The position numbers and the translations under genes were made by a program. Shown here piece after piece: positions 9,909 through 27,182 of a DNA stretch of 64,000 bases; position 1 is the first letter of the stretch; each line of letters opens with the position of its first letter. This stretch comes from Coriobacteriia bacterium (GTDB taxonomy: Bacteria > Actinomycetota > Coriobacteriia > Anaerosomatales > PHET01). The DNA lies in NCBI GenBank assembly GCA_035687245.1, contig DASRYH010000019.1, positions 11,733-75,732 of the forward strand. The letters are read 5' to 3'. Under the pieces are notes generated by a model that had not been told where the DNA came from, made no database searches, and saw nothing but the letters and a program-made list of their open reading frames with translations.

Positions 9909-9978
9909 CGTGGAAAGATCCTCCCCGCGTACGAACAGTCCGTGCGTCAGGTTATCAGAAGCGCCGCGGCCCGGCGGG

Positions 9979-10938: not shown

Positions 10939-10939
10939 G

Positions 10940-11995: not shown

Positions 11996-12161
11996 ACCAC
12001 AGACCGGCTTGCTGGTGAGGTACGCCGAAGCGCACGGAAACGGCTTCTATACAGGTCTTTCACGGCCGCTGAGGGTGCGGGCACGCATGCTACACTGCCG
12101 TTGCCTGAGGCCGGCGGGGACGGCCATTCAGCTCGGGGCAGCTATCGACATCTCGGAGACC

Positions 12162-14045
12162 ATGAAAGACAGACGCATCAGCATCGTAGCGGTGTGTACG
12201 TACCTGGGCGTGTTCGTGGCGCCGTGGTTCGTTCCGATGCGCAGTGCCGCGATCGTCTCCGACTCGCTTGCGGCGGGCTTCAGCAACCGGACGTCCGTCG
12301 TCGCGCTGCTGCTTGGGTGCATCGCGCTGTTCGCGCTGGCGCTGCGTCAGGCCCTGGCCAAGACCGACGCCGAGGAAGACGAGGCAGCGCTCGTTTCCGC
12401 GCAGTCGCCCTCAAGCGAAGATCGCCTCAGCCCGTGGGTAGTTGTATGCGGCATCGTCGCGACCTTCGCGATAGTAGGCATCGGTGCGGTGCTGCTGGGC
12501 AACCAGCCGCACGGCGACGCCGCCTACTTCTGCGACCGGCTCTTCCGAATGGTCGCCGGTGAGCGGCCCTACGTCGACTTCGAGTTTTCGTATGGACCCG
12601 TGCTCATCTATGGCCCGTGGGGCGTTTACAGAGTCCTCGGCAGCCGGCTGGGGCTGGGCATCTATGCGTCCTACTACTTGTGGGTCGGCTTCGCCTACTC
12701 AGTCGCCCTGCTGCTAGTCGCCTACATCGTCAACCGGGTGAGCCTAACGCGCGTGCAGCGTACGGCGGCGTTCGTACTCATCGCCGCGATGACGGTGTTT
12801 AACCCCACCTTGGGCGTCAACTACAGCGCACTGCGCTTCATGATTCCCTACGCCCTGTTCCTGTGGGCACTCGGTTGTGTGCAGGGTTCGCGCAACGCGG
12901 TCTTGCGGTGGGTCGCGCCGCTGGCAGCGATGGGGCTCGCGTTCGTGGTGACCCCGGAGATGGGCATAGCGCTGCTGATCGCACTGGGCATCGCGCTCGC
13001 GCTGCTCGTCTACCGGCAGCCGAAGGCCAACGCAGGCCCCCTCATCGTGCTGGTGGCAGGCATCGCGTGCTATGTGATCGTCTTGAGGTTGTCGGGCAGC
13101 GGCACGATGGGTGCGCTCGCTGCAGGTGCGTTCTACCTCCCGGTCTTGCCGGGTCCTTCGGCAGTCCTGTTCGTCGCGAGCGCGCTACTCGTCGGCTGGG
13201 GAGTGGGGACGGCGCTGCCCGCGTCATCACACGAGGACCAGGCGACCCAGCTCGGTTGGCTGGCGCTCGTGGCGATTCTTGCGGTGCCCGCGTTTGGTCG
13301 CGCCGACTTCATGCACATCTTCTGGAACGGCATCGGCGTCGTCCTCGTAGCCGCTGCCGTGGCCGGTCGCCGCTGGCGCCTGGGGACTGCCTACATAGGC
13401 GTTGCCGCAGCTGTCTTCCTCGTCGCGATGAGTATCTTCTCTTTGCGCTACTCCTCGACGCCCTACGTCACTGGCGTGAAGCGCCTGCTCTACGGGTCCG
13501 AAGCGAGGGCGGTGCGCGTGTCTGAGCTGCGCGGGAAGCCGGTGAAGGCTGGGTTGAAGCTGCACCGCAGTCTCGCCGACCAGGATCGCAAGCAGGAGAC
13601 GGCCGCCAAGCGACTCTCCGACATCCCGAACGTCGCGTTCTTGGCGGTTCTGTGGAATCGCCCGGGCATGCGCATTTCAAAGTCGGGGAACACCGTTCCT
13701 GTCTACAGTTTCCCGGGCAACGCGCTTACGAGTACCGAGTTCGAGGCGTCAGTCGCCGAGCTCGATGCCGCGAAGAACCTCGTAGTTCCCACGCGCGAGT
13801 ACGTCGCGTATGAGGCCGCTGCGAAGCGGGCACGGAGTAATGGTGCGGTCGCAGGCGATATCGTCATGAAGATGCCGAACAAGGTCGGCACTCCCAGCTG
13901 GTACGGGCTGCTGCAGGGTGTTCCGGTGCAGCTACAAGGCCGCAACGAGGTCTTCGACCCGGTCGCATCGTTCGGACTCGTGATGGATCGTGACTGGATC
14001 GCCTACGACACCATCGAGGGTCACACCTGGCTGAAGAGGCGCTGA
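12162..14045 (+). CDS. large polytopic membrane protein, putative GT-C (GT87/DUF2029-like) glycosyltransferase, tandem paralog A
   Basis: ORF 11913..14045 trimmed to the ATG at 12162 (GGAGAC RBS). The loop motif HGDAAYFCDRLFRMVAGERPYVDFEFSYGPVLIY resembles the GT87-type first loop. More than 12 TM helices, FGRADFMHIFWNG, and a soluble C-terminal domain of about 190 aa. Confidence 0.7.
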   Translation: MKDRRISIVAVCTYLGVFVAPWFVPMRSAAIVSDSLAAGFSNRTSVVALLLGCIALFALALRQALAKTDAEEDEAALVSAQSPSSEDRLSPWVVVCGIVATFAIVGIGAVLLGNQPHGDAAYFCDRLFRMVAGERPYVDFEFSYGPVLIYGPWGVYRVLGSRLGLGIYASYYLWVGFAYSVALLLVAYIVNRVSLTRVQRTAAFVLIAAMTVFNPTLGVNYSALRFMIPYALFLWALGCVQGSRNAVLRWVAPLAAMGLAFVVTPEMGIALLIALGIALALLVYRQPKANAGPLIVLVAGIACYVIVLRLSGSGTMGALAAGAFYLPVLPGPSAVLFVASALLVGWGVGTALPASSHEDQATQLGWLALVAILAVPAFGRADFMHIFWNGIGVVLVAAAVAGRRWRLGTAYIGVAAAVFLVAMSIFSLRYSSTPYVTGVKRLLYGSEARAVRVSELRGKPVKAGLKLHRSLADQDRKQETAAKRLSDIPNVAFLAVLWNRPGMRISKSGNTVPVYSFPGNALTSTEFEASVAELDAAKNLVVPTREYVAYEAAAKRARSNGAVAGDIVMKMPNKVGTPSWYGLLQGVPVQLQGRNEVFDPVASFGLVMDRDWIAYDTIEGHTWLKRR

Positions 14046-14049
14046 GGGT

Positions 14050-15948
14050 TTGAACGAGCACGTCGCCATCGGATTCGTTCGGCGACACCGCCACGTGTTG
14101 GCCGCGGCGACGGGCGTCGTCGCTGTGCTCTGCATCTTCGGGCTTCCGTGGCTCGTGCCATCGCAACACGCAGCGATCCTCTCCGATGCGCTCGCGTCGG
14201 GCTTCAACAACCGCGTCGCGGTGCTCGCGCTCATAGGCGCGGCATGCGCGATGTTCGCCTTGGGCGCAGTTGCCTTCGGCGAACCAGCCGCGCAGGGTCG
14301 AAGGGTGATCGGCATCGGTGCCGCTCCTGAGGGCGAACGGGTCAGCCGTCGCGTGCTCGTCGTGGCGATGGTGGCGACAGTTGCCCTGGTCGCCATTCAA
14401 GCGTGGGTAATGCGGGATCAGCCTCACGGAGACTCGGCGTACTTCATCGACCGCATCCTGCGGCTCTCCGCAGGGCAGCGGCCGTTCTCGGAGTTCGAGT
14501 TCTCCTACGGGCCGCTCATGCTCTACGCGCCGTGGGCGATCTTCCGGGTACTCAACGCCGCGTTCGGCACGAGTGCGTTCTTCGCCTACTACGTGTGTGT
14601 CGCCGCCGCTTACACGGCCGGTCTCGGACTCGTTGCGTTTACCGTGAACCGGCTCGAGATGACGCGGACCCAGCGACATGCAGCACTCACGGTCGTTGCT
14701 GTGATGACGTTGCTGCATCCGGTGATGGGCATCAACTACTGCGCGCTTCGGTTCTTCGCACCCCTTGCGGCATTCATCTGGGGGCTCGAGCGCCTTCAGG
14801 TGGACCGCGGCCTCAGCGCCGGTTGGTTGGCTGCGCCGGCCGCGGTCACGGCAGTGCTCCTGTTCTCGCCCGAGATGGGCGTCGCAACGATGGTGGCGAC
14901 GGGTTTCGCGCTCGCGTCACTCGTTGCCGTCGACCGACGACGGTTCTTGCCGCCCCTCACGGTGCTCGTAGGGTGGTCCGTAGCGTTGATCTGGCTACTC
15001 GTCTCCACTTCCGGTGGCGCGCTCGGAGCGTTTGCGGCGGGCTCCTACTACTTCCCGGTGCTCCCCGGCATTCCGGCGCTGCTCTACGTAGCGAGCGCGC
15101 TGCTTGCAGCATGGGGAATAGGCGCCGTGCTTCCTGGTTCCGAGCCCTTCGATCGCTCGGTGCAGATGGGCTGGCTAGCCCTGCTCGCGATACTGGTGGT
15201 TCCCGCCTTCGGCAGGGCGGACTTCATGCATATCTTCTGGAACGGCGCGGGCGTCCTTCTCACCGCGTCCGCGGTGGCCTCGCGCCGATGGCGTGTCGGG
15301 TTCGGATACGTCATGGGCGTGGCTGCCGTGTTCGGCGTGGTGCTGGCGGCCTACACCTACAACTTCTCGTACCCGACGCTTGCCAACGCGACGGTGGCCG
15401 CATTCCACTCCTCAGAGTCAGGTGCGAGGACGCTGGCCCGTCTGGGGGTTGAGCCGATGGAGATCGCCATGGGGCGTCATCGAGCGGTGCTCGCCGAAAG
15501 GAAGCGGCAGCTGGCCGAAGCAGCTCAGCTCACGAAGATCCCGAATATGGCGTTTCTAGCGCACCTGTGGGGGCCGGTGGGACCGGCAGTGGTGAGCTCG
15601 GGCAACCTGAGTCCGGCCTACTGGTCGTCGTGGGGGCCGATGCGTGAGCAAGAGGTCGTCACGCTGAAAGCGCAGCTGGCGTCGGCGACGAACCTCGTGA
15701 TTCCCGCCGACGTCTACGAGGCGAGCCTGAGTGCGGCGAAGGGCGCCGAGCCGCGACCGAGCGGAGCGGTGGTATCTGTGCCAGGCATCGCAAGCTCGTC
15801 GGCGTGGAACGCGATCCTCCAGAGCTGCCCCGTGATCATCCACGGCAAGAACCCAGTGCTGGATCCGACTGCCACCTGGGGCGTTCTACTCCGTGACTGG
15901 CGCCCATACCGCTACATCGGTGGCTACGTCTGGCTCGTGCGCAGGTAG
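14050..15948 (+). CDS. large polytopic membrane protein, putative GT-C (GT87/DUF2029-like) glycosyltransferase, tandem paralog B
   Basis: TTG start 4 nt after the paralog A stop. Collinear with paralog A (HGDSAYFIDRILRLSAGQRPFSEFEFSYGPLMLY; FGRADFMHIFWNG; RR C-terminus). Confidence 0.7.
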   Translation: MNEHVAIGFVRRHRHVLAAATGVVAVLCIFGLPWLVPSQHAAILSDALASGFNNRVAVLALIGAACAMFALGAVAFGEPAAQGRRVIGIGAAPEGERVSRRVLVVAMVATVALVAIQAWVMRDQPHGDSAYFIDRILRLSAGQRPFSEFEFSYGPLMLYAPWAIFRVLNAAFGTSAFFAYYVCVAAAYTAGLGLVAFTVNRLEMTRTQRHAALTVVAVMTLLHPVMGINYCALRFFAPLAAFIWGLERLQVDRGLSAGWLAAPAAVTAVLLFSPEMGVATMVATGFALASLVAVDRRRFLPPLTVLVGWSVALIWLLVSTSGGALGAFAAGSYYFPVLPGIPALLYVASALLAAWGIGAVLPGSEPFDRSVQMGWLALLAILVVPAFGRADFMHIFWNGAGVLLTASAVASRRWRVGFGYVMGVAAVFGVVLAAYTYNFSYPTLANATVAAFHSSESGARTLARLGVEPMEIAMGRHRAVLAERKRQLAEAAQLTKIPNMAFLAHLWGPVGPAVVSSGNLSPAYWSSWGPMREQEVVTLKAQLASATNLVIPADVYEASLSAAKGAEPRPSGAVVSVPGIASSSAWNAILQSCPVIIHGKNPVLDPTATWGVLLRDWRPYRYIGGYVWLVRR

Positions 15949-15953
15949 GCCGT

Positions 15954-16994
15954 CTAGGCCACGAGCATGCGGGTGAAGCGGTTGCTGCGTAGCGCAATCG
16001 TGGCAGCCGTAGCCATCACGAAGCAGAAGAGCCAGGCCGAAGCGATCCACGCAGCGTCCGGCATGGCAGTCAATGGCACCTTGCTCTGGAACAGATCGAG
16101 CCAGATGACGTGCGTCAGATAGATGCCGATCAGGAAGTTGCCGCCCCACGCGAGCTTGTCGGCACCCCACCACGAGAACTCAGCAGCCGCGCCCCAAAGC
16201 AGCACACCAACGGTCGTAGCCCACATGAGCGTGGATGCCGACGTGGCAAGCCAGGGCGGCAGAACGGCACCGTAGATGCGTAGGGCGCCAGCTCCCAGGA
16301 TCGACAGCGGCACCAGCAGCTGGATGGGCACTGGCGGCCGCTTCATCCGCCCAGCGGCGCGAAACTCCATGCCGGCGAGGTAGGCGGCAAACCAGCGTGG
16401 CGCGTACCAGAAGTTCTGGATGCCGAAGGTGGTGGTGAGCGCCTGCAGCCGCGGGCTCCAGTCGAGCGCGCACAGCAGCACGACGCACACAACGAGCAGA
16501 ATGCGTCGCCACAGAGGAGTACGCGCGCCGACCTCTGCCGCCACTGCACAGTAGAACAGCACCGGCAGTGTCCACATGATTCCGTGGGCGCCAGAGAAGA
16601 AGACCAAGCGGTAGATGTTGGGCAGCACCAGATTGCCGCGTGCAAGCGCGGCGGGTTGCTGAATGAACAGATAGACCAGACTGAAGAAGGCGTAGGGAAT
16701 CGCGAGGCGCACGAACCGCTTCTTGAGCCACGCGGCTCCCCTCGTGCCGGTGGCACCGTGGAGATAGCCAGCGACTGCGAAGAAGAAGACGAGCGCCCAC
16801 ACCATCGCCGAGACCAAGAAGTTCCCTAGCGGTGTACCAGTGCGCGCGGCGACGTGATGCAGGACGATCGAGCACGCTGCAAAGTACTTGAGGCCATCAA
16901 GCGCCAGGTTGCGCTTCTTGGGAGCAGCCGGGTTCGCGTCACCCGATGGGATCGCGGCCTGTGCTTCGGCGGAGATGCCCGGAACGCTACTCAC
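15954..16994 (-). CDS. acyltransferase family 3 (integral-membrane O-acyltransferase), second copy
   Basis: LALDGLKYFAACSIVLHHV AT3 N-terminal motif and about 10 TM helices. The start overlaps the upstream ThDP enzyme stop by 8 nt. Confidence 0.85.
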   Translation of the reverse strand: MSSVPGISAEAQAAIPSGDANPAAPKKRNLALDGLKYFAACSIVLHHVAARTGTPLGNFLVSAMVWALVFFFAVAGYLHGATGTRGAAWLKKRFVRLAIPYAFFSLVYLFIQQPAALARGNLVLPNIYRLVFFSGAHGIMWTLPVLFYCAVAAEVGARTPLWRRILLVVCVVLLCALDWSPRLQALTTTFGIQNFWYAPRWFAAYLAGMEFRAAGRMKRPPVPIQLLVPLSILGAGALRIYGAVLPPWLATSASTLMWATTVGVLLWGAAAEFSWWGADKLAWGGNFLIGIYLTHVIWLDLFQSKVPLTAMPDAAWIASAWLFCFVMATAATIALRSNRFTRMLVA

Positions 16995-18801
16995 TCGCCT
17001 CTGCCTTCAGGAAGCGGTTCATGATGGCCATGCGCTCGTCTTCGGGCAGGAACGGGTACTGGTCGTCGAGCGAGCAGGAGACGAAGGTGCCGTCGTCCTG
17101 TCGGCGCGAGACGATCTTGGGGCACTTCTCCTGCTCGAAGTTGACCTTCACCTCGACGAGGAAGGGGCCGTCGGTCTCCATGATCTCGGTGAGACCAGCG
17201 TCGATGTCGTCGTTGGATGCGAAGCAGCGGTAGGTGAGCCCGTAGGCTTCGGCCAGCGGTTCAAACTCGGGGTTGTAGACGCCCGACTCTTCGTGGCAGC
17301 CCACGAAGCGGCCTTCGAAGAAGGTCTTCTGTGTGGCGCGGATGGACTCGTAGCCGCCGTTGTTGATGACGAAGATCTTGATGTTGAGGTTGTGCTTGCC
17401 GATCGTCAGCAGCTCTTGGATGTTGAGCGCGATGCTGCCGTCGCCGGTAACGAGCACCGTGCGCTTGCCACCTTGGGCTGCGCAGGCACCGATGACCGCG
17501 GGCAGGTCCCAGCCCATGGCGCCGTAGCCATAGTTCGTGATGATGCGCTGGTCGGGCTTGACGATGAACGAGTGGTGTACCGAGACCGCATCCGACGCGT
17601 TGCCGGTGAGGACGACCTCGCCGGGCTGCATCTGCTCGGAGATTCGGTAGGCGAGCACGTAGGTGTTCGCGTGCTCGGTGTCCTCGAAGTAGTCCTCAGT
17701 CAGCAGCGGGTAGCTGCGCTTCCATTCGGCGGTCGCCGCGAGCCACTCGGGATCGATCTTGAGGTCGAGCGTGGGGTAGTCCTCAACGAAGTGCTTCATG
17801 AACCACTTCACGTCTGCGACCACGCCCAGGTCCACCGGGAAGTGCGGCTTGGCGAGCTCCTGGGCATCGATGTTGATCATCACGCGCTTGGCCTGCGGCG
17901 CGAAGCCCTTGGTGTCCCAGCCCACCGCGGTGACCGCCATACTGGCGCCCACGCACACGAGCAGGTCGGCGTTTTGCAGCGTGAAGTTCGCGCGGCGCTG
18001 GCCCGTCGGCCCGAAGCGGCCCATGTAGAGCGGGTGCTCCTCGGGTAGCAGATCCATGCCGCCCATCTGGCAGACCACAGGGCAGCCGAGGTGCTCGACA
18101 AAGGCCCTGAACTCCTCTTCGGCGCCGGCGAGGTGGATGGCGTTGCCGGTCACGATGAGCGGGCGCTCGGCCTGCTTCATCATCTCCATGACCTTCTCGA
18201 TGCCACGCGGATCGCCCGCGTGCTGCTCGTCCTCGATTTCGTCGCCGAAGAGGAACTCGTGGGCGCGCGTCTCGTCCATCTCCAGAGCCTGGATGTCGAG
18301 GGGGATGTTGAGCCACACGGGACCCGGGCGGCCAGAGGTCGCAATCTTGATCGCGCGCTCGAGTTCGAGCGCGATGTCGTCTTCGGCAGTCAGCGTCGTG
18401 GCGTACTTCACCACCGGTTCGACCATCGGGATGATGTTGACTTCCTGCGGACCGATCTGGCGGTGCTTCGAGTAGTCCGCGATGAGTGCGGTGCGCACCT
18501 GACCGGAGATGACGAGCACGGGCACAGAGTCGACCCACGCGCCGGCGATCGCCGAAAGGGCGTTGGTGCTTCCGGGGCCGGTGGTGACCAGGCAGACGCC
18601 CAGGTCGCCGGTCACGCGCGAGTAGCCTTCGGCAGAGATCGCGCAGGCCTGCTCGTGGAAGTTGCACCAGTACTTGATGTTCTCGTTTCGACCCAGTGCA
18701 TCGACGAGGTACATGATGCCGCCGCCGGTGACGGTGAAGACGTCCTTCACGCCGCGCTTAGCGAGATGTTCAAAGATGTAGTCGGCGACGAGCACGGTCA
18801 C
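16987..18801 (-). CDS. thiamine-diphosphate-dependent enzyme of the acetolactate-synthase/YerE-like family
   Basis: 604 aa. N-terminal Pyr domain (VTGGGIMYLVDAL, TTGPGSTNALSAIAGAWVDSVPVLVISGQ). C-terminal ThDP/Mg motif VTGDGSIALNIQELLT...FVINNGGY (GDG-X-NN). The genomic context is sugar biosynthesis, not ilv genes. Confidence 0.85.
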   Translation of the reverse strand: MTVLVADYIFEHLAKRGVKDVFTVTGGGIMYLVDALGRNENIKYWCNFHEQACAISAEGYSRVTGDLGVCLVTTGPGSTNALSAIAGAWVDSVPVLVISGQVRTALIADYSKHRQIGPQEVNIIPMVEPVVKYATTLTAEDDIALELERAIKIATSGRPGPVWLNIPLDIQALEMDETRAHEFLFGDEIEDEQHAGDPRGIEKVMEMMKQAERPLIVTGNAIHLAGAEEEFRAFVEHLGCPVVCQMGGMDLLPEEHPLYMGRFGPTGQRRANFTLQNADLLVCVGASMAVTAVGWDTKGFAPQAKRVMINIDAQELAKPHFPVDLGVVADVKWFMKHFVEDYPTLDLKIDPEWLAATAEWKRSYPLLTEDYFEDTEHANTYVLAYRISEQMQPGEVVLTGNASDAVSVHHSFIVKPDQRIITNYGYGAMGWDLPAVIGACAAQGGKRTVLVTGDGSIALNIQELLTIGKHNLNIKIFVINNGGYESIRATQKTFFEGRFVGCHEESGVYNPEFEPLAEAYGLTYRCFASNDDIDAGLTEIMETDGPFLVEVKVNFEQEKCPKIVSRRQDDGTFVSCSLDDQYPFLPEDERMAIMNRFLKAEASE

Positions 18802-19865
18802 GCCTCACTTCCGGTTCGGTTTGCATTGCGGTGCCACTCGGCGGTCCGGCCAATGCCGTCCTCGAGCGAGATGATGGGGGAGAGCCCGAGCTCATCCCGA
18901 GCGCGGGTGATGTCGGGCACGTAGCGAGCAGGCAGGGCGCCGGGAACCGGCGTCTGAGCCACCTCGATGTGAGCGTCGGGACACAGGACTCGCGAGACGG
19001 TCTCTGCGAGTTCGAGAATCGAGAGGTCTTGGTCGCTGCCCGTGTTGTAGGCCTGGCCAGGCCTACCCTTGAGCAGAATCGTCCAGAGCCATAGAGCAAG
19101 GTCGGCTGCGTAGAGGTAGGACCGGCGGGGAGTCCCGTCGCCGCCGATGGTGATCGTGTTGCCGGCCAGAGCGTCGCGGATGAAGTTGCCTACCGCGTAG
19201 CCTGCGTTGATGTCGAGATAGGGGCCTACGAAGCTGAAGAGGCGGGCGATGGTGGTCTCGATCCCCGTCTCAAGGTGCGCAGCCGAGCACAGAAACTCCG
19301 CCGCGCGCTTGCCATGGCCGTAGGCGGCTTTCGCGTTGTCGGCGAGCGGGGCGAAGACGTCGGTCTCGCTCACGTGGTCGCAGGTGAGCGGCTGCGTGCC
19401 GTAGATCGCGCCGGAGCTCGTGTAGAGGAACTTGCCTACACCAGCCGACTCGGCAAAGCGCAGCATGTGTCGCGTGCCGTCCACGGCGGTGTCGAACTCG
19501 AGCGTAGGCTTCGCATGCGCGACCACCTGGTTCGTCTCCGTCGCCATGTGCAGCGCGTGCGTGAACTCGCCTTCCGGAGACTCGAAGTTCAAGACGTCAC
19601 CGGCGAGCATCGTGATGGGGCGGGCGGTCGCCAGATGCGGGTGACGCGCGGCCAACCTGCCCGGATCGCGAGAGAGCACGACTGCCTCCACGCCCAGGTC
19701 GAGTTTGGCGTCGGCCCAGATGAGGCTTTCGAGCATCCAGCGACCTACAAAGCCCGTGCCGCCGGTGATGAAGATCCGCGCACCCTCGAGCTCGCCGAAG
19801 AGCTCGCCACCATGCTCGAGGATGTGATCGAGGTCAGCGTGGAGTGGATTTGCCCACTCAGCCAC
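18798..19865 (-). CDS. NAD-dependent epimerase/dehydratase-family protein (candidate keto-sugar reductase)
   Basis: IFITGGTGFVGRW Rossmann motif and YGHGKRAAE (YxxxK). I chose the GTG at 19865 (GAGGTG RBS 5 nt upstream; 8-nt overlap with ddhC). The ORF-track ATG at 19910 is the alternative. Confidence 0.7.
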   Translation of the reverse strand: MAEWANPLHADLDHILEHGGELFGELEGARIFITGGTGFVGRWMLESLIWADAKLDLGVEAVVLSRDPGRLAARHPHLATARPITMLAGDVLNFESPEGEFTHALHMATETNQVVAHAKPTLEFDTAVDGTRHMLRFAESAGVGKFLYTSSGAIYGTQPLTCDHVSETDVFAPLADNAKAAYGHGKRAAEFLCSAAHLETGIETTIARLFSFVGPYLDINAGYAVGNFIRDALAGNTITIGGDGTPRRSYLYAADLALWLWTILLKGRPGQAYNTGSDQDLSILELAETVSRVLCPDAHIEVAQTPVPGALPARYVPDITRARDELGLSPIISLEDGIGRTAEWHRNANRTGSEA

Positions 19866-21213
19866 GGCACACCTCAAGGACCACTTCGGCCATGCATTCG
19901 AGCATTGCATCGGTCATGCCGGGGTAGACGCCCACCCAGAACGCATCGTTCATGATGCGATCGGTGTTGGTCAGCTCGCCCACGATACGGAAGCCTTCGC
20001 TGGCCGCGCGCATCCGGTCGAACGCAGGCTGGCGGGTCATGTTGCCCGCGAAGAGCATGCGCGTCTGGACCTTGTTGGCCTCGAGTGCAGCCACGATCGC
20101 GTCGCGCGAGAGCGCCTTGCCGCTGCCGGTCCGCGCACCCTCGCGCACGGTCATGAGGTAGCCGAACCACGACGGGTCCGCACCTTCGGTAGCGACAGGC
20201 ATGATCAGCTTGTCCTCCACCGGCGCAAGTAGCTCGCGCAGCTTGCGGTAGTTCGCGCGACGGGCTTCGGTGAAGCTCGGCAGCTTCTGGAGCTGTGCGA
20301 CGCCGACGGCTGCCTGCATGTCGGTGGCCTTCAGGTTGAAGCCGAACTCGTTGTACGTGTACTTGTGGTCGTAGCCGAAAGGAAGGGTGCCCAGCTGCTG
20401 CCCGAAGCGGTTGCCGCAGACGTTGTCGACGCCCGAGGGGCAGATGCAGGCACGACCCCAGTCGCGCATGGAGAGCATGATGCGGTTGAGCGTAGCGTCA
20501 GAGGTGTAGACCGCGCCGCCTTCGCCCATCGTCATGTGGTGTGGCGGGTAGAAGCTCGAAGTCCCGATGTCGCCGAAGGTGCCGGTCTTGCCGCCCTTGT
20601 ACTCGCCGCCGAGAGCGTCGCAGTTGTCCTCGATGAGCCACAGGTCGTTGGCGTTGCAGAAGGCACGCACGGTGTCGATGTCGAACGGGTTACCCAGCGT
20701 GTGGGCGAGCATGACTGCCTTGGTCTTAGGCGACAGCGCAGCTTCAAGCTGCGTGACGTCGATGTTGTAGGTGCCCAGCGTGACGTCCACGAAGACCGGT
20801 ACGGCGCCGTACTGAACGATCGGCGCGACGGTGGTGGGAAAGCCCGCCGCTACCGTGATGACCTCATCGCCCGGTGCAACGCGGCGCTTGCCCAGCCGGT
20901 CGCTCGTCAGCGCCCAGAACGCGAGCAGGTTGGCGCTCGAGCCGGAGTTCACGAGCAGCGTGCTGGGCAGGCCCAGGAACTCCGCGAGCCCCTTCTCGAA
21001 CTCCTCAGAGTAGCGGCCGTATGTCAGCCAGAACTCGAGCGAAGAGTCGACGAGGTTCACGAGCTCGGCTTCGTCGAAGACGCGGCCCGCATACGGGATG
21101 CGCGTCTCGCCACGCTCGAAGTCAGGCTTCGCGCCGAACTGGGCTGCGTAGTACTCGCGAACCTTCGCGAGAATCTCGTCGCGAAGCTGGCTGGCGTTGG
21201 GAGAGTCCGTCAT
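19858..21213 (-). CDS. ddhC: CDP-6-deoxy-L-threo-D-glycero-4-hexulose-3-dehydrase (E1; RfbH/DdhC, DegT/DnrJ/EryC1 fold)
   Basis: ORF 19858..21330 trimmed to the ATG at 21213 (MTDSPNASQLRDEILAKVREYY). The E1 hallmark SSFYPPHHMTMGEGG has His where aminotransferases carry the PLP lysine. About 451 aa. Confidence 0.88.
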   Translation of the reverse strand: MTDSPNASQLRDEILAKVREYYAAQFGAKPDFERGETRIPYAGRVFDEAELVNLVDSSLEFWLTYGRYSEEFEKGLAEFLGLPSTLLVNSGSSANLLAFWALTSDRLGKRRVAPGDEVITVAAGFPTTVAPIVQYGAVPVFVDVTLGTYNIDVTQLEAALSPKTKAVMLAHTLGNPFDIDTVRAFCNANDLWLIEDNCDALGGEYKGGKTGTFGDIGTSSFYPPHHMTMGEGGAVYTSDATLNRIMLSMRDWGRACICPSGVDNVCGNRFGQQLGTLPFGYDHKYTYNEFGFNLKATDMQAAVGVAQLQKLPSFTEARRANYRKLRELLAPVEDKLIMPVATEGADPSWFGYLMTVREGARTGSGKALSRDAIVAALEANKVQTRMLFAGNMTRQPAFDRMRAASEGFRIVGELTNTDRIMNDAFWVGVYPGMTDAMLECMAEVVLEVCRG

Positions 21214-21238
21214 CGAGCAGAAGTCCTTTCGTGGAAAG

Positions 21239-22375
21239 CTAGCGGGTCCATGCCACGCCCGCTGCCGTAGCGGCAGCGACGTAGGCGGAGATGTCGTCGT
21301 TGGTGGCGGTTTCGGCATCGCGCACGCCATGGTAGGTGTCGCGGTACCAGCCGACGGTGCGGCTCAAGGCCTCGTGCACGTCGAACGCAGGGCGCCAACC
21401 GAGCAGGTCAGCGGCCTTCGAGTAGTCGAGTTTCAGAAAGCGTGCTTCGTGAACGGCGGGCGCTGTCAGCTGCGGTGTAGACCAGCCGCCGTCGCCCCAG
21501 CAGCCGATGACAGTCTCGACCACTTCGGCAACCGTGATATTGCCCGCCGGCGAGGGACCGAAGTTCCAGGCACCGTCGAACGGGTGCGTCTCGTCGCCGT
21601 CTGTGAACTGGCTCGCGGCCAGCCACAGGTAGCCGGAGAGCGGCTCGAGCACGTGCTGCCACGGGCGTACCGCTCCGGGATTGCGCACGCCGATCTCGTC
21701 GCCCTCGGAGAGCGCGCGGATGCAGTCTGGGATGATGCGGTCGAGCGCCCAGTCACCGCCGCCGATGACGTTGCCGGCACGCGCCGAAGAGACGCTCGCG
21801 GTGCTGCCGGAGCCGTAGAACGAGCGGCGGTAGGCGGCGGTCACGAGCTCGGCGCAGCCCTTCGACGACGAGTAGGGGTCGTAGCCGCCCATCGGGTCGT
21901 TCTCGCGGTAGGCGTACTCCCACTCGTTGTTCTCGTAGCACTTGTCGCTCGTGACGTTGAGCACCACGCGCACCGACGCGACCGAGCGCGCAGCCTCAAG
22001 AACGTGGACGGTGCCCATCACGTTGGTGGCGTAGGTTTCGACCGGCTCGTCGTAAGACAGGCGCACGAGCGGCTGCGCGGCAAGGTGCATGACGATCTCG
22101 GGCCGCGCGGCAACCATGACCTCGCGAAGGTGGTCGAGGTCGCGCACGTCGCCGATGTGGTGATCGATTCGAGATGCGAGGCCCAGCTGCTCAAAGAGGC
22201 TGGGGTCGGTCGGCGGCTCGAGCGAGTAGCCGGTCACTTCCGCGCCCAGAGAGAGAAGCCACGTGACGAGCCACGAGCCCTTGAAGCCGGTGTGGCCGGT
22301 CACGAAGACGCGGCGACCCTCGTAGACTCCGCCGAACAGCGGGGCGGACGGCATGCCCGTCACCATACCTTCCAA
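21239..22375 (-). CDS. ddhB: CDP-glucose 4,6-dehydratase
   Basis: RRVFVTGHTGFKGSWLVTWLLSLGAEVTGYSL, YSSSKGCAE (YxxxK) and RPWQHVLEPLSGYL are present. Start is one of 22375, 22366 or 22354. Confidence 0.9.
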   Translation of the reverse strand: MEGMVTGMPSAPLFGGVYEGRRVFVTGHTGFKGSWLVTWLLSLGAEVTGYSLEPPTDPSLFEQLGLASRIDHHIGDVRDLDHLREVMVAARPEIVMHLAAQPLVRLSYDEPVETYATNVMGTVHVLEAARSVASVRVVLNVTSDKCYENNEWEYAYRENDPMGGYDPYSSSKGCAELVTAAYRRSFYGSGSTASVSSARAGNVIGGGDWALDRIIPDCIRALSEGDEIGVRNPGAVRPWQHVLEPLSGYLWLAASQFTDGDETHPFDGAWNFGPSPAGNITVAEVVETVIGCWGDGGWSTPQLTAPAVHEARFLKLDYSKAADLLGWRPAFDVHEALSRTVGWYRDTYHGVRDAETATNDDISAYVAAATAAGVAWTR

Positions 22376-23130
22376 GGTGCCTTGCCCGAGTTCCAGAGGT
22401 CCTCGAGGTAGCGCTTGTCGCGCAGGGTATCCATCGGCTGCCAGAAGTCAGCGTGCCGAAACGCCACGAGCTGACCCTCTTCGGCAGCCGAAGAGAGGGG
22501 ATGGCCCTCGAAGATGGTGCTATCGGCCTCGATGCGGTCGAAGATCGCCGGCTCGAGCACGAAGAAGCCGCCGTTGATCCAGTCATCGTCGCCACGCGGC
22601 TTCTCACGGAAGCAGTCGATGCCGCCCTGGTCGTTGAGCTCGAGCGCGCCGAAGCGGCCGAGCGGCTGGACTGCGGTGAGCGTGGCTTCCTTGCCGTGGC
22701 TCTTGTGGAATGCGAGCAGCTCGGAGACGTCAACGTTTGAGACGCCGTCGCCATAGGTCAGCATGAACGTCTCGTTGCCCACATGCTCCTGAACGCGCTT
22801 GAGGCGACCGCCGGTCATCGTCGCGTCGCCTGTATCGACAACGGTCACACGCCACGGCGGATTATCGTCCTGGTGGACTTCGGTCTCATGGGTGCGCATG
22901 TCGAAGGTGACGTCGCAGTTGTGCAACCAGAAGTTGTGGAAGTACTCCTTGATCATGTAGGCCTTGTAGCCCGCGCAGATCACGAAGTCGTTGAAGCCGT
23001 AGTGGCTATAGATCTTCATGATGTGCCACAGGATCGGTCGCTCGCCGATCTCGGCCATCGGCTTGGGACGCAGACCCGTCTCTTCAGACAGGCGCGTGCC
23101 GAGACCACCTGCGAGTATGACCACCTTCAT
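22360..23130 (-). CDS. ddhA: glucose-1-phosphate cytidylyltransferase
   Basis: ORF 22360..23217 trimmed to the ATG at 23130 (MKVVILAGGLGTRLSEETGLRPKPMAEIGERPILWHIMKIYSHYGFNDFVICAGYK). 256 aa. Confidence 0.9.
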   Translation of the reverse strand: MKVVILAGGLGTRLSEETGLRPKPMAEIGERPILWHIMKIYSHYGFNDFVICAGYKAYMIKEYFHNFWLHNCDVTFDMRTHETEVHQDDNPPWRVTVVDTGDATMTGGRLKRVQEHVGNETFMLTYGDGVSNVDVSELLAFHKSHGKEATLTAVQPLGRFGALELNDQGGIDCFREKPRGDDDWINGGFFVLEPAIFDRIEADSTIFEGHPLSSAAEEGQLVAFRHADFWQPMDTLRDKRYLEDLWNSGKAPWKVW

Positions 23131-23302
23131 CCGGACACCCCCTGGGAGCGCTTCGCTACGACAGATGGCGAGCAGGCAAAATAGCCCCCCGCCGAATTGA
23201 CTCGTGGGAACCCGCAAAGTATATCAGGCAATAGCGGCCAGAGGCGGGGAGGCGGAGTGCGTTACGAAGCCGTCACGGGCCGAATGGCACGCCCGTTGTG
23301 GA

Positions 23303-24466
23303 CTAGTAGTCGATATCCGTGAATCCAGCCGACTGAACGCGAGCGAGCAGCGCCGAATCCGCCAGCACATCGGCGATCTTGGCGGCAGCGTGACCGTCCC
23401 CGTAGGGGTTGGACGCGGTAGCGGCCACTTCCCGGTGGAGTGGGGAGGTCGCGTGCCGGATGGCCGCCGCGATGCTGTCGCGATCTGCTTGCGCGTGCAC
23501 CACCGCGGCTGGGCGCAGCCGCCCTGACTGGCGGTGACCGATGTCGATGCTCGGTACACCAAGGGCGGGGACCTCGATCAGTCCGCTCGAGGAGTTGCCC
23601 ACGACCGCCGCGCAGTTCTTGGTCGCCGAAAGGTAGCCACGCCACCCGAGCACGGTCACCAAGTCGGCCCGTGCGGCATTCGCTTCAACCCACGACTCGA
23701 TTGCGCTTCGCACGGCGCGCCCGCCGGCATCCAGGTTGGGCGCCGTGAACAGGACGCGGAACTCAGGCACCGCATCGAGAGCCGCCAGCAGCTCGTAGAG
23801 CTCACCGAGAGACTCGCCGCCGCGCGTGACTGGGTGGAAGGTGACCAGCAGCGTACTGCCGTCGCACACCACGCCGTGTACCGACTCGAACTCGTCTTCA
23901 TCGAGCAGCTCCGTGCCGCGGACGTTGTCGACGGCCAGCGCGCCGGTGTTGAAGACGCCGATCGCCGGCTCGCCCATCTGCACGATGCGCTTGCGGTAGA
24001 CCTCGGTAGAGGCGAAGTGCAGTGTCGAGAGCTTGGTGATGGCGTGTCGGAACGCATCGTCGAGCGAGCCGAAGGTCAGCTCGCCGCCGTGAATGTGAGC
24101 GACGGGGATGTCGAGGATGGTGGCTGCCGAAGCCGCCGCAAACGCCTCGAAGCGGTCTCCGAGGATGACGACGATGTCGGGGGATGCTACGTCGAGCGCG
24201 TCGGCTATGAGCCGGATGCCTTCGCCCGTCGCGTGCGCGGTGGCAAGCCGGTCGTCGCCTTCGGCAGGCAGCGCGATGCGATGTGCTACCTCAAAGCCGT
24301 CGGCGACGATAGCGTCGACGGTCATGCCCTGCTCGGCCACGAGATGGGAGCCGGTGGCCAATACGTCGAGCTGGAAGCGGTCGTCCTCACGAAGCACGAC
24401 CAGCAGCGGACGCAGCAGGCCGTAGTCGGCGCGTCCTGTAGTGACAACGGTGACCTTCACGCTCAT
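23303..24466 (-). CDS. neuC: hydrolysing NDP-N-acetylhexosamine 2-epimerase (NeuC/LegG family)
   Basis: MSVKVTVVTTGRADYGLLRPLL..., AHIHGGE, and a 387-aa length typical of the NeuC family. 4-nt overlap with the upstream synthase. Confidence 0.85.
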   Translation of the reverse strand: MSVKVTVVTTGRADYGLLRPLLVVLREDDRFQLDVLATGSHLVAEQGMTVDAIVADGFEVAHRIALPAEGDDRLATAHATGEGIRLIADALDVASPDIVVILGDRFEAFAAASAATILDIPVAHIHGGELTFGSLDDAFRHAITKLSTLHFASTEVYRKRIVQMGEPAIGVFNTGALAVDNVRGTELLDEDEFESVHGVVCDGSTLLVTFHPVTRGGESLGELYELLAALDAVPEFRVLFTAPNLDAGGRAVRSAIESWVEANAARADLVTVLGWRGYLSATKNCAAVVGNSSSGLIEVPALGVPSIDIGHRQSGRLRPAAVVHAQADRDSIAAAIRHATSPLHREVAATASNPYGDGHAAAKIADVLADSALLARVQSAGFTDIDY

Positions 24467-25467
24467 AGCTCGATCATCTCATCGGGGGCGAAGGCGCGTG
24501 GGGCCTGCTGGCCTATGACGGAGTCCCACAGCATCGGGCTCAGCCCCGTACCCGGCCTCTTGGTGGTGAGGTTGGCCTCGGTGAACGTCTCGCCTTTGGC
24601 GATTCCGGCGGCCGCAACGATGCTCTTGCGCACGAGCGGCATGTTGCGCGACTCAGTGGGCGTGGGCACCTTGTGGCCGTCGCCGAGAGCGACCGAGACG
24701 TTTCTTACCGCTGTGACCAGCGAGGCGAGCTCATCGGGCTCGACGCTCGCGGCGTGGTCGGGGCCGGGTAGCGAGCGGTCGAGCGTGAAGTGCTTCTCGA
24801 CCACCGTCGCGCCCAGTGCGGCCGCAGCGACCGATACTTCGATGCCACGCGTGTGGTCGGAGTAGCCGATCTCGATGCCGAAGCGATCGCGGATCTCCGC
24901 CATCGCAAGCAGGTTCACTTCGTCGAAGGGCGTGGGGTACTCGGTGGTGCAGTGCAAGACCGTGATTCGGGATCGCTCCAGCCCGGCGGCTTCGAGGGCC
25001 TCGATGGCCGCGGCGATCTCGTCCAGCGTCGCCATGCCCGTAGAAAGCAAGACGCTCTCGGCGCACGCAGCGATCTCTCGCAGCATCGGCAGGTTCGTGA
25101 TCTCGCCCGAGGCGATTTTGAACTCGCGGGCGCCGAGCGAGGCGAGCAGGCGCACGCTGGGGATGTCAAAGGGCGAGGAGAGGAAGGCGATTCCGCGGTC
25201 GGCACACGCTGCGAGCAGGCGCTCATGCGAGGGTGCATCGAGCTGCAGCGCCCTGAGCATCTCGAGCTGGGAGCCGTCACCTGTCTGGGTCTTCTGGTAG
25301 TCGGCCTTCTGCGCGGCAGGTGAGACGAGCGCCTCAGGCACGAAGCTTTGGAACTTGATCGCGTCTGCGCCCGCGTCAGCGGCCGCGTCAACCATCGCAA
25401 GCGCGCGGTCAGGCGAACCGTTGTGGTTCACGCCGGCTTCGGCAATGACACGAACCCGCGACATCAT
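24463..25467 (-). CDS. neuB: nonulosonic acid synthase (NeuB/LegI family)
   Basis: ORF 24463..25932 trimmed to the ATG at 25467 (MMSRVRVIAEAGVNHNGSPDRALAMVDAAADAGADAIKFQSF). Also GYSDHT and a C-terminal SAF-like domain. ATGA overlap with the upstream gene. 334 aa. Confidence 0.9.
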   Translation of the reverse strand: MMSRVRVIAEAGVNHNGSPDRALAMVDAAADAGADAIKFQSFVPEALVSPAAQKADYQKTQTGDGSQLEMLRALQLDAPSHERLLAACADRGIAFLSSPFDIPSVRLLASLGAREFKIASGEITNLPMLREIAACAESVLLSTGMATLDEIAAAIEALEAAGLERSRITVLHCTTEYPTPFDEVNLLAMAEIRDRFGIEIGYSDHTRGIEVSVAAAALGATVVEKHFTLDRSLPGPDHAASVEPDELASLVTAVRNVSVALGDGHKVPTPTESRNMPLVRKSIVAAAGIAKGETFTEANLTTKRPGTGLSPMLWDSVIGQQAPRAFAPDEMIEL

Positions 25468-26102
25468 TCGCCTGCCTTGGGGCGGCAGGGATTGCCGAAG
25501 GCGATGGTGCCCGCGTCGATGTCGTCGACAACGACGCTTCCCACGCCGATGACCGCACCAGTGCCTATGCGAGCGCCTTGGATGACCGATGCGCCGGTTC
25601 CCACATGTGCGTCGTCGCCGACGATCACATCCCCGCTCAATGTCGCGCTCGGGGCGATATGCGCAAAGGCGCCGACCATGCAGTCGTGGTCGATCACGGC
25701 GCCGGAGTTGACGATGGCGAAGTCGCCGACTGTGACACCTGGACCCACGACAGCTCCGGCGCCGATGAAGACGCCCGTGCCGAGGGTGGCGTTCGGCGAG
25801 ACATACGCGGTGCGATGCACGACCGTCTCGAAGTGGAAGCTCATCGCACTCGCGCGCTCGACTGCCGCGCGGCGGGCGGTCGTATCGCCGACCGATCCGA
25901 TGCCGAGTACAGCGCGGTAGGTGCCCTCGCAAAACAGGCGCTCGAGGTCGGCGTCGGAACCGATGACCGGGAGGCCGCCCACGGTCTGACCAGGCGTCTG
26001 CTCGCGATCGATCGCTCCGGAAGGCTCGATTCCGGCAGAACGCAGTGCGTCGATGACGCTGTTCGCGTGTCCGCCGGCTCCGATAACGATAAGTCCGCTC
26101 AT
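25464..26102 (-). CDS. hexapeptide-repeat sugar N/O-acetyltransferase (NeuD/LegH/PglD-like)
   Basis: ORF 25464..26378 trimmed to the ATG at 26102 (MSGLIVIGAGGHANSVIDAL...). N-terminal Rossmann-like domain plus a left-handed beta-helix (GVFIGAGAVVGPGVTVGDFAIVNSGAVIDHD). 212 aa. Confidence 0.8.
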   Translation of the reverse strand: MSGLIVIGAGGHANSVIDALRSAGIEPSGAIDREQTPGQTVGGLPVIGSDADLERLFCEGTYRAVLGIGSVGDTTARRAAVERASAMSFHFETVVHRTAYVSPNATLGTGVFIGAGAVVGPGVTVGDFAIVNSGAVIDHDCMVGAFAHIAPSATLSGDVIVGDDAHVGTGASVIQGARIGTGAVIGVGSVVVDDIDAGTIAFGNPCRPKAGE

Positions 26103-26110
26103 CGTCGTGG

Positions 26111-27175
26111 CTACCTGATCCCGAGGCGATCGAGCGTGTCTTGAAGCTCCTCGATCTGCCCGATGTCGAGCCAGGAACGCTCCGCGATGGGGTAGACGCC
26201 CACGTTGCGCCCGGCCGCCTTGGTCATCTCGATGAGGTCGGTCGCATCGGTGAAGGTGTCGTCCTTGATCAGATCGAGGACATCGGACTCCATGACATAG
26301 ACGCCGGTGGAGACGAGCATGTCGAAACGCGGCTTCTCGCGGAGATTCTCGAGCATTCCGCCCTCGCCGACGTCGCACACGCCGTAAGGCAGAACGACCG
26401 ACTGCATCGACGCGATGATCGTGATCGCGTTGTTGTGGCTGCGGTGATAGTCGATCGCGCAGGAGTACTCCGTGTCGATAATGGTGTCGCAGTTGGCGAG
26501 GATGAAGGTGCCATCGATGTCGCGCGCCATGAGCTTGAGACTGCCGGCGGTCCCGAGAGGCTTGTCCTCGTCGTAGAAGCGCAGGCCGTAGTCGAGTCGA
26601 ACGTCACTGAAGTAGGCGCGAATCAGGCTCGACTTGTGGTTGAGAGAGACCAGGAAGTCGCTCACGCCCTGCTCGTGGAAGCGATCCATGATGAGCTGCA
26701 GAATCGGGATGTCGCCAACGGGCATGAGGGGCTTGGGGAGGATGCGCGTGAACGGCTGCAGCCTCGTGCCCTTTCCGCCTGCCATGATCGCGACCGGAAC
26801 GTCGATCGTAGTGTGAAACCCGCGTGGCTTGCCGAAGACGTCGTTCCAGCGAATCGCATCGATCAGCCGGCCGTCATCGTCGAGCACGGGAATCGCCTCG
26901 AGCTGACGGTCGAGGAAGATCTCGCGCACGTGCTCTTCGGAGAAGCCCTTGCGCACCACCACGGGCTCGTCGTTCATTGCCATCGATACCGGGTCGCTTA
27001 GTTGGCGACCTGCGAGGATGTGCCGACGGATGTCGCCGTCGGTGAGCACGCCAAGGAGGATCTCGCCGGCGCTGGCCACGAACAGGATGCCTCCGGTCCC
27101 GTGGTTCAACGTCTCGAGAGCCTCGATGACAGAGATGTTCGGTGTGACGATTGCGTTCTTGATGCGGTCGGTCAT
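26111..27175 (-). CDS. CBS-domain-containing sugar-phosphate nucleotidyltransferase (PtmE-like)
   Basis: ORF 26111..27229 trimmed to the ATG at 27175. N-terminal CBS pair (GVLTDGDIRRHIL), then the NTP-transferase motif VAIMAGGKGTRLQPFTRILPKPLMPV. Confidence 0.8.
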   Translation of the reverse strand: MTDRIKNAIVTPNISVIEALETLNHGTGGILFVASAGEILLGVLTDGDIRRHILAGRQLSDPVSMAMNDEPVVVRKGFSEEHVREIFLDRQLEAIPVLDDDGRLIDAIRWNDVFGKPRGFHTTIDVPVAIMAGGKGTRLQPFTRILPKPLMPVGDIPILQLIMDRFHEQGVSDFLVSLNHKSSLIRAYFSDVRLDYGLRFYDEDKPLGTAGSLKLMARDIDGTFILANCDTIIDTEYSCAIDYHRSHNNAITIIASMQSVVLPYGVCDVGEGGMLENLREKPRFDMLVSTGVYVMESDVLDLIKDDTFTDATDLIEMTKAAGRNVGVYPIAERSWLDIGQIEELQDTLDRLGIR

Positions 27176-27182
27176 TCGGCCT

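Follow-up and report, generated by a model that had tools for sequence, protein, structure and literature searches.

Linkage of a YerE-like thiamine diphosphate-dependent carboligase to dideoxyhexose and legionaminic acid-type genes in a Coriobacteriia genome suggests a candidate route to a branched nucleotide sugar

The draft genome of a Coriobacteriia bacterium (assembly GCA_035687245.1; 81 contigs, 2.24 Mb, ~65% G+C) contains, on contig DASRYH010000019.1 (C19), a train of sugar biosynthesis genes that includes a thiamine diphosphate (ThDP)-dependent enzyme. Most likely, these genes make a cytidine diphosphate (CDP)-linked 3,6-dideoxy sugar to which the thiamine enzyme adds a carbon branch. 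The window, i.e., the whole 64,000-nt stretch analyzed here, corresponds to C19:11733-75732, and positions are given in window coordinates. Its closest matches are to genomes of uncultured Actinomycetota and to genomes labelled as Coriobacteriia. The downstream part of the train consists of six genes that the initial annotation placed head to tail on the minus strand, and the gene coordinates bear out this arrangement. The first three are ddhA, encoding glucose-1-phosphate cytidylyltransferase (22360-23130, with an ATG start at 23130; TIGR02623 equivalog, 421 bits against a cut-off of 300), ddhB, encoding CDP-glucose 4,6-dehydratase (21239-22366; TIGR02622 equivalog, 479 bits against 278), and ddhC, encoding E1 (RfbH), the pyridoxamine phosphate (PMP)- and 2Fe-2S-dependent CDP-4-keto-6-deoxyglucose 3-dehydrase (19858-21213; NF011936, 692 bits against 423). 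The identities originally proposed for these three products hold, given that all three NCBIfam equivalog models score well over their cut-offs. They are followed by genes for an extended short-chain dehydrogenase/reductase (SDR; 18798-19865; Pfam Epimerase and GDP_Man_Dehyd, with the cofactor-binding and catalytic motifs GGTGFVG and YGHGK intact), the predicted ThDP-dependent carboligase (16987-18801; three TPP_enzyme domains) and an AT3 membrane acyltransferase (15954-16994; PF01757, 90 bits), and the Pfam domain matches likewise agree with the earlier assignments. The genes are tightly coupled as described previously: E1 and SDR overlap by 8 nt, given a GTG start of the SDR at 19865; SDR and ThDP overlap by 4 nt, given a GTG start of the ThDP gene at 18801 (the database record begins 2 codons later); and ThDP and AT3 overlap by 8 nt.

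The same strand carries, immediately upstream, a contiguous gene set of the legionaminic acid type that is complete, with all members recognized at the family level. It comprises a LegB-like nucleoside diphosphate-N-acetylhexosamine (NDP-HexNAc) 4,6-dehydratase (28354-29352; GDP_Man_Dehyd, 232 bits), a LegC-like DegT-family aminotransferase (27183-28361; PF01041, 314 bits), a PtmE-like CBS-domain sugar-1-phosphate nucleotidyltransferase (26111-27229; CBS and NTP_transferase), a PglD/LegH-like hexapeptide N-acetyltransferase (25464-26102; PglD_N and Hexapep), a NeuB/LegI-type phosphoenolpyruvate (PEP)-dependent nonulosonate synthase (24463-25467; TIGR03569, 456 bits against a cut-off of 400), which is the sole NeuB of the genome, and a NeuC/LegG-type hydrolysing NDP-HexNAc 2-epimerase (23303-24466; TIGR03568, 389 bits against 236). 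The only sizeable gap in the train, 172 nt (23131-23302), separates the nonulosonate genes from ddhA.

The ThDP protein carries the Pyr, central and PP domains (PF02776, PF00205 and PF02775, all at E <= 1e-33) and the cofactor motif GDG (453-455)-X24-NN together with the catalytic Glu50 (in HEQ), which are invariant among 12 orthologues. Its top NCBIfam names are acetolactate synthase, all under cut-off (e.g., 365 vs 538 bits). Sulfoacetaldehyde acetyltransferase was rejected (Xsc, 226 bits against a cut-off of 620), as was phosphonopyruvate decarboxylase, since there is no Ppd model among the NCBIfam matches. The best match in the PDB is the YerE-like enzyme JanthE of Janthinobacterium sp. 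HH01 (8rph, 348 bits, E = 7.7e-103, residues 3-589; further structures 8rpi and 8rpj), followed by PpYerE, a solved YerE homologue (5ahk, 246 bits), and Escherichia coli IlvB (242 bits). The latter two scores are too close to discriminate between YerE and acetohydroxyacid synthase (AHAS), so the PDB ranking was dropped as a test and the assignment is based on the JanthE match, the NCBIfam cut-offs, the tree and the gene context. In BLAST, the protein is 32% identical to JanthE and ~30% identical to PpYerE, no nearer than to IlvB; a conserved C-terminal tail is common to the window protein and JanthE and is lacking in PpYerE and IlvB. JanthE is known to couple alpha-keto acids to ketones, its physiological substrates being unknown (PMC12188165), and it differs from the window protein in having a CDG motif in place of the canonical GDG. 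A separate IlvB, which shares 42-48% identity with that of E. coli, is encoded in the genome and split over the ends of two contigs (C41:10999-12099 and C81:56295-56894, covering residues 1-200 and 184-535 of E. coli IlvB); this split probably reflects an assembly break and would show that the draft has gaps.

For comparison, at least 207 relatives or loci with ThDP orthologues were found in a one-genome-per-species collection, and 80 loci (designated L###; genomes of the comparison set are designated G###, G000 being the window's genome) were kept, with ThDP proteins 39-67% identical to that of the window. They come from Actinomycetota, Chloroflexota, Acidobacteriota, Verrucomicrobiota, Burkholderiales, Patescibacteria and others. 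In a quick maximum-likelihood tree rooted with two IlvB sequences, from E. coli and from the genome itself (YpYerE, ErwE and MMAR_2332 were not included), PpYerE diverges first, on a long branch whose position is uncertain, and JanthE second (SH-aLRT 99); next comes a clade of 87 E1-linked proteins, with the window protein deep within a 78-member subclade (support 100). The protein is a putative carboligase of an E1-linked, JanthE-related (YerE-like) clade. Of the original proposal that it belongs with YerE and not with IlvB, Xsc or Ppd, the separation from these three stands, with all their NCBIfam models below cut-off and a YerE-like enzyme as the nearest solved structure; close orthology to YerE was not established. 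A Janthinobacterium lividum locus (L040) was considered as the JanthE locus and rejected, as JanthE is just 37-39% identical to any protein of the set. The same family and order also contain a second ThDP subfamily (L115, L116 and L117, from G075, G058 and G064), 37-41% identical to the window protein, which branches at or near the base of the E1-linked clade. In L115 and L116, the paralogue adjoins E1, and NeuB was not found nearby in any of the three loci; this subfamily probably uses a different donor.

The 3-dehydrase of the window matches E1 of Yersinia pseudotuberculosis (PDB 3bcx) at E = 1e-154. The motif FYPPHHMTMGEGG, in which a histidine was noted to replace the pyridoxal phosphate (PLP)-binding lysine, is indeed present, and its first histidine (His225) aligns with His220 of the Yersinia enzyme, a position marked by the H220K mutant chain 3bb8. 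The 2Fe-2S motif is complete, with exact spacing (C198-X57-C256-X-C258-X7-C266). Because His225 and the cysteine pattern are both kept and the protein matches Yersinia E1, we conclude that it is an electron-requiring enzyme and not a ColD-type one. The dedicated reductase E3 (DdhD/AscD), which the initial annotation did not see in the window, is absent from the whole genome: domain scans of the genome found no Fer2-FNR fusion (the E3 architecture, plant-type Fer2 with flavin adenine dinucleotide (FAD) and NAD domains), the one Fer2 domain is part of a RACo-like protein, Fer2 is missing from all four NAD_binding_1 proteins, and tblastn with a genuine E3, that of L083, returned nothing in this genome at E <= 1e-20. 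An open reading frame (ORF) of 357 aa on contig C56, FNR-like and with the size and layout of an E3, was rejected because it has neither Fer2 nor the cysteine motif and matches Fre-type flavin reductases.

The same holds for the relatives. A regular-expression scan of ORFs (Fer2 cysteine motif, RxYS and GxGxxP) across the 80 loci and the window identified E3 in L083 alone. In this Sediminibacterium metagenome-assembled genome, a genuine Fer2-FNR protein is encoded directly upstream of ddhA (717-1754), the one adjacent case among the 80 loci and a natural contrast to the loci without E3. With this E3 as the query, 43 of the 57 genomes of the cluster type, including that of the window and all six same-order relatives, showed no match at E <= 1e-20, and the matches in Burkholderiales sit far from E1. 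E1 without E3 is the rule in this cluster family and not a peculiarity of the window genome. The electrons probably come from a general ferredoxin, by analogy with SpnQ, the thymidine diphosphate (TDP)-sugar 3-dehydrase of spinosyn biosynthesis, which is also an E1-type PMP and 2Fe-2S enzyme and works via general ferredoxin or flavodoxin reductase pairs, with no dedicated E3 (PMC8987622). SpnQ differs in that it belongs to antibiotic biosynthesis and has a TDP-2,6-dideoxy substrate; the window protein is closely orthologous to the Yersinia E1, which is CDP-specific. Several small 4Fe-4S ferredoxins are encoded in the genome, and two PyrK/AsrB-like FAD and 2Fe-2S proteins (L004 and L005), which have the cofactor set of E3 in a different architecture, are possible surrogates for it. 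The RACo-like protein (L001 1486-3012, G000:C8 near 113811; Fer2, Raco_middle and RACo_C_ter domains) resembles reductive activators of corrinoid proteins and suggests a corrinoid-dependent anaerobic metabolism.

Neighbors of the ThDP gene were counted by tblastn with the window proteins within 10 kb on either side in the 80 loci. An SDR orthologue adjoins or is near the ThDP gene in 59-69 loci, E1 is found in 56-62 and DdhA in 48-60. At the genome level, an E1 orthologue accompanies the ThDP orthologue in 55 of 56 genomes, almost always in one copy. This co-occurrence makes it very probable that the ThDP enzyme uses the product of E1 as its acceptor. A NeuB homologue lies less than 10 kb from the ThDP gene in 65 of the 80 loci, in many phyla, and less than 300 nt away in 12; no other keto-acid-forming enzyme recurs in the clade of the window protein. 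The full version with NeuC, PglD, LegB and LegC is found in ~15 loci, where its members are intermingled with ddh, SDR and ThDP genes and the order varies. For example, in the closest relatives (L010 and L016) the order is E1-LegB-LegC-PtmE-NeuB-NeuC-SDR-GFO-SDR-ThDP-AT3, and in Paraburkholderia and Pandoraea (L070 and L073) it is NeuC-PglD-ThDP-NeuB. The LegB-like orthologues in the ThDP loci are 57-79% identical. Furthermore, a GFO/IDH/MocA oxidoreductase, which runs off the left edge of the window, and a classical SDR (655-1500; adh_short_C2) form a minus-strand pair (2-1500) whose members are 72% and 61% identical to L010 7182-7946 and 7943-8926, and this pair lies inside the nonulosonate/ThDP operon in L010 and L016. 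A retained gene set with shuffled order is the usual mark of a single pathway. Because the set is kept while the order is shuffled, we suggest that the nonulosonate genes and the ddh/ThDP genes belong to one pathway.

Known nonulosonate pathways finish with a cytidine monophosphate (CMP)-synthetase of the CTP_transf_3 fold. In the window's genome, however, the search with PF02348 (CTP_transf_3) gave no match over the cut-off, and tblastn with 20 diverse family seeds gave none either. With the same 20 seeds, a CTP_transf_3 homologue was found near the ThDP gene in two of the 80 loci, L017 (~12014-12376) and L024 (~14090-14578); these exceptions to the pattern could represent a different pathway variant. 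The Burkholderiales carriers have a single CTP_transf_3 match each, which is probably KdsB, and in Trinickia sp. NRRL B-1857 this copy is more than 2 Mb from the cluster. As a control, we compared 41 genomes, i.e., that of the window and 40 same-order relatives, 20 of which encode NeuB. Where NeuB is not linked to ThDP, a CTP_transf_3 gene is present in 16 of 17 genomes, mostly adjoining NeuB, in contrast to none of the three genomes (G000, G054 and G082) whose sole NeuB is no more than 3 kb away from the ThDP orthologue (Fisher's exact p = 4/1140 = 0.0035). Both situations coexist in G062, where the NeuB genes on C24 and C44 have a CMP-synthetase beside them and the NeuB that adjoins ThDP, on C4, does not.

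Taken together, these observations lead us to propose, with confidence that is evenly balanced, that the genes from 29352 to 15954 form a single composite pathway whose product is a CDP-activated 3,6-dideoxyhexose carrying a long branch at C4. A nonulosonic acid is favored as the donor because it is an alpha-keto acid and has no CMP route here, and we give about even weight to its use by the ThDP enzyme. The more specific version, in which a legionaminic-type acid that is not CMP-activated serves as the acyl-anion donor and places a C8 diacetamido chain on C4, yielding a 14-carbon, nitrogen-bearing branched sugar, falls slightly short of even. Under this scheme, DdhA and DdhB would form CDP-4-keto-6-deoxyglucose, as expected for their families, and E1 would strip off the C3 hydroxyl with electrons supplied by a ferredoxin or flavodoxin system of general function. 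The PtmE-, LegB-, LegC-, PglD-, NeuC- and NeuB-like enzymes, whose families are clear, would meanwhile produce a free nonulosonic acid, presumably of the 5,7-diacetamido type. Without CMP activation, this acid would be decarboxylated by the ThDP enzyme and the C8 acyl anion added onto the C4 ketone of the CDP-sugar. The adjoining SDR may then reduce the new branch carbonyl, a role like that of YerF; the top hits of this SDR in the PDB are UDP-glucuronate decarboxylases and 4,6-dehydratases, in a comparison that included no YerF or ErwF sequence. Finally, transferases of the GT2 and GT-C types would move the sugar to a cell-wall glycan, followed by O-acylation by the AT3 enzyme. This last step is probably a late one; an AT3 orthologue directly follows the ThDP gene in L010, L011 and L016 alone, all close relatives.

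This scheme follows the logic of a published one for long sugar branches, in which a functionalized alpha-keto acid is made by a cluster-encoded enzyme, then decarboxylated and attached to CDP-4-keto-3,6-dideoxyglucose by a YerE-like enzyme, and the branch is finished by a reductase, as in the clusters for erwiniose (ErwE/F/I/J), caryophyllose (MMAR_2331-2333) and gastriose (MyGE/MygF/MygI), which share the keto acid, the YerE-like enzyme and the NAD(P)H reductase (PMC9306805). Pyruvate aldolases supply the donor there, whereas in the window it would come from a PEP-dependent NeuB-type synthase at the end of a diacetamido-hexose pathway, and the branch would be C8 and nitrogen-bearing. The donor branch itself has a close counterpart in Campylobacter jejuni, whose legionaminic acid pathway, reportedly described by Schoenhofen and colleagues in 2009, consists of PtmE, LegB, LegC, LegH, LegG, LegI and LegF. 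Homologues of PtmE, LegB, LegC, LegH (PglD-like), LegG (NeuC) and LegI (NeuB) are contiguous in the window, and a PtmA/PtmF-like oxidoreductase pair lies at its left edge. The difference is that LegF, the CMP-legionaminic acid synthetase, is absent from both the window and the genome. A sialyltransferase-like or Maf-type transferase was not recognized in the annotated parts either.

Several points weigh against a composite pathway with a nonulosonate donor. The assembly is in 81 contigs, and a CMP-synthetase gene could hide in an assembly gap. The 172-nt gap, with candidate promoter-like elements, splits the nonulosonate block from the ddh block, and unrelated sugar pathways are often neighbors within glycan islands. 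Two genomes (G064 and G075) carry the ThDP paralogue and E1 and have no NeuB, so the link is confined to one clade. Nonulosonic acids are mainly pyranose hemiketals, and the ThDP enzyme would need the rare open-chain keto form; moreover, no natural sugar whose branch derives from a nonulosonate is known to us. What the sequences show, at the level of families, is which enzymes are present, that the cofactor motifs of E1 are intact, that E3 and a CMP-synthetase are lacking, and how often the genes co-occur; the donor, the part played by the SDR, the source of electrons for E1 and the transferases are inferred.

The alternative put forward in the initial annotation is a yersiniose-like pathway, in which pyruvate is the donor, an acetyl branch is placed on CDP-4-keto-3,6-dideoxyglucose and reduced by the SDR to 1-hydroxyethyl, and the nonulosonate genes are independent. 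The underlying gene logic does apply: as in the yersiniose A pathway of Y. pseudotuberculosis (DdhA, DdhB, DdhC/E1, DdhD/E3, YerE and YerF), the window has DdhA, DdhB and E1 with the same histidine and cysteine motifs, then a ThDP enzyme and a reductase, matching DdhABC, YerE and YerF (PMC9306805). Pyruvate is also among the donors accepted by JanthE (PMC12188165), and the 172-nt gap between the gene blocks would fit two independent pathways. One difference from the Yersinia pathway is that the genome lacks E3. The two-carbon branch is the part that does not stand up well: the ThDP protein is no nearer to PpYerE than to IlvB, and the cluster is tied to a NeuB-type synthase. Furthermore, a yersiniose-like pathway would leave a complete nonulosonate pathway without a CMP-synthetase in the genome, and explains neither the pattern in the same-order relatives nor the interleaved gene orders of L010, L016, L070 and L073. 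A long nonulosonate-derived branch is therefore favored over an acetyl branch because of the NeuB linkage and the presence of a legionaminic-type pathway without CMP-synthetase; we consider the yersiniose-like alternative unlikely, though still to be reckoned with.

Another alpha-keto acid of central metabolism, such as 2-oxobutyrate or a 4-hydroxy-2-oxo acid, might be the donor, in which case the nonulosonate would have some other CMP-free fate. JanthE and MyGE are permissive, accepting C3 to C8 keto acids (PMC12188165, PMC9306805), and the basal clade members L115, L117 and L085-L087 have E1 with NeuB not nearby. Nevertheless, the annotated part of the cluster contains no pyruvate aldolase or further keto-acid-forming gene, and in the clade of the window NeuB alone recurs in that capacity; we regard such a donor as distinctly improbable. 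It is marginally less probable that the acceptor is a different one, for example, the LegB-like NDP-4-keto-6-deoxy-HexNAc, giving a branched amino sugar, with the ddh genes making an ordinary 3,6-dideoxyhexose. Four loci (L074, L075, L078 and L081) indeed combine ThDP, SDR and nonulosonate genes with no ddhABC within the 10-kb flanks, and several loci encode two or three LegB-like dehydratases. Set against this are the near-universal, usually single-copy E1 of the ThDP genomes and the position of E1 in Aquitalea, apparently a few kb past the analyzed flank, if contig C4 is the contig of that locus. In addition, the NCBIfam scan identified no 4-ketoreductase of the abequose/paratose synthase type, which an ordinary dideoxyhexose would need. 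Finally, it is highly improbable that the ThDP protein is a housekeeping acetolactate synthase, or an unrelated decarboxylase that merely sits in the cluster: the top NCBIfam names and the source annotations do say acetolactate synthase large subunit, but all AHAS models score far below cut-off, the genome has its own IlvB, and the ThDP gene overlaps SDR and AT3 at its start and stop codons and is kept beside sugar genes across phyla.

Elsewhere in the window, a GtrB-like family 2 glycosyltransferase (GT2; 10940-11995, minus strand; PF00535) is a candidate for the transfer of the finished CDP-sugar to polyprenyl phosphate. A homologue is present within 10 kb of the ThDP gene in 47 of the 80 loci, with 71-74% identity in L010 and L016. 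At the head of the train, a GT87-family membrane glycosyltransferase (29446-30699, minus strand; PF09594, 70.7 bits) may belong to the pathway by virtue of its position. Two large membrane proteins without a Pfam match (1517-3202 and 6219-7922) are 24-29% identical to Pfam-less proteins of 695-718 aa encoded in ThDP/nonulosonate clusters at seven loci, with homologues in Trinickia, Paraburkholderia, Pandoraea and Aquitalea (e.g., L038 17468-19624 and L070 12907-14994); they may act as a transferase or polymerase dedicated to this sugar. The region 7798-11046 encodes a long-form RmlA-like nucleotidyltransferase, an RmlB-like 4,6-dehydratase and another SDR of the epimerase/dehydratase family, and is a third nucleotide-sugar route of the island; RmlC and RmlD were not recognized in the annotated parts of the window. 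In a close relative (L009 3131-4651), a 506-aa protein with an FkbM methyltransferase domain, which has no counterpart in the window, is encoded between E1 and a LegB-like gene, suggesting an extra methylation in that variant.

More than 200 YerE-like branched-sugar clusters have been predicted in silico (PMC12247030), so the general kind of pathway is known. What appears to be new here is the proposed supply of the donor by NeuB and legionaminic-type enzymes and the systematic absence of E3. In the searchable literature, which did not cover Krug et al. 2024 (Angew. Chem. e202403535), we found no paper combining NeuB or legionaminic acid with YerE-like enzymes, and no description of the systematic lack of E3 in such clusters was found in the searchable literature. 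Specific to the window are the full diacetamido-nonulosonate version, the CMP-synthetase control in the relatives and the lineage-specific AT3 gene.

The cassette with a NeuB-type synthase and without E3 recurs in many phyla, including cultured Trinickia, Paraburkholderia, Pandoraea and Aquitalea. As biocatalysts, YerE-like enzymes are prized for making chiral tertiary alcohols, yet for most of them, including JanthE, the natural substrates are unknown. If the nonulosonate-derived branch is real, it would name a physiological donor class for the relatives of JanthE, one that would also be new to chemists, and would give sialic acid-like sugars a second metabolic fate. It would also explain many "sialic acid synthase" annotations in genomes without a CMP-synthetase, and a large family of undescribed high-carbon surface sugars of soil, freshwater and uncultured bacteria would become predictable from sequence alone. 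The fact that E1 usually occurs here without E3 changes how pathways for 3,6-dideoxyhexoses are to be recognized in genomes.

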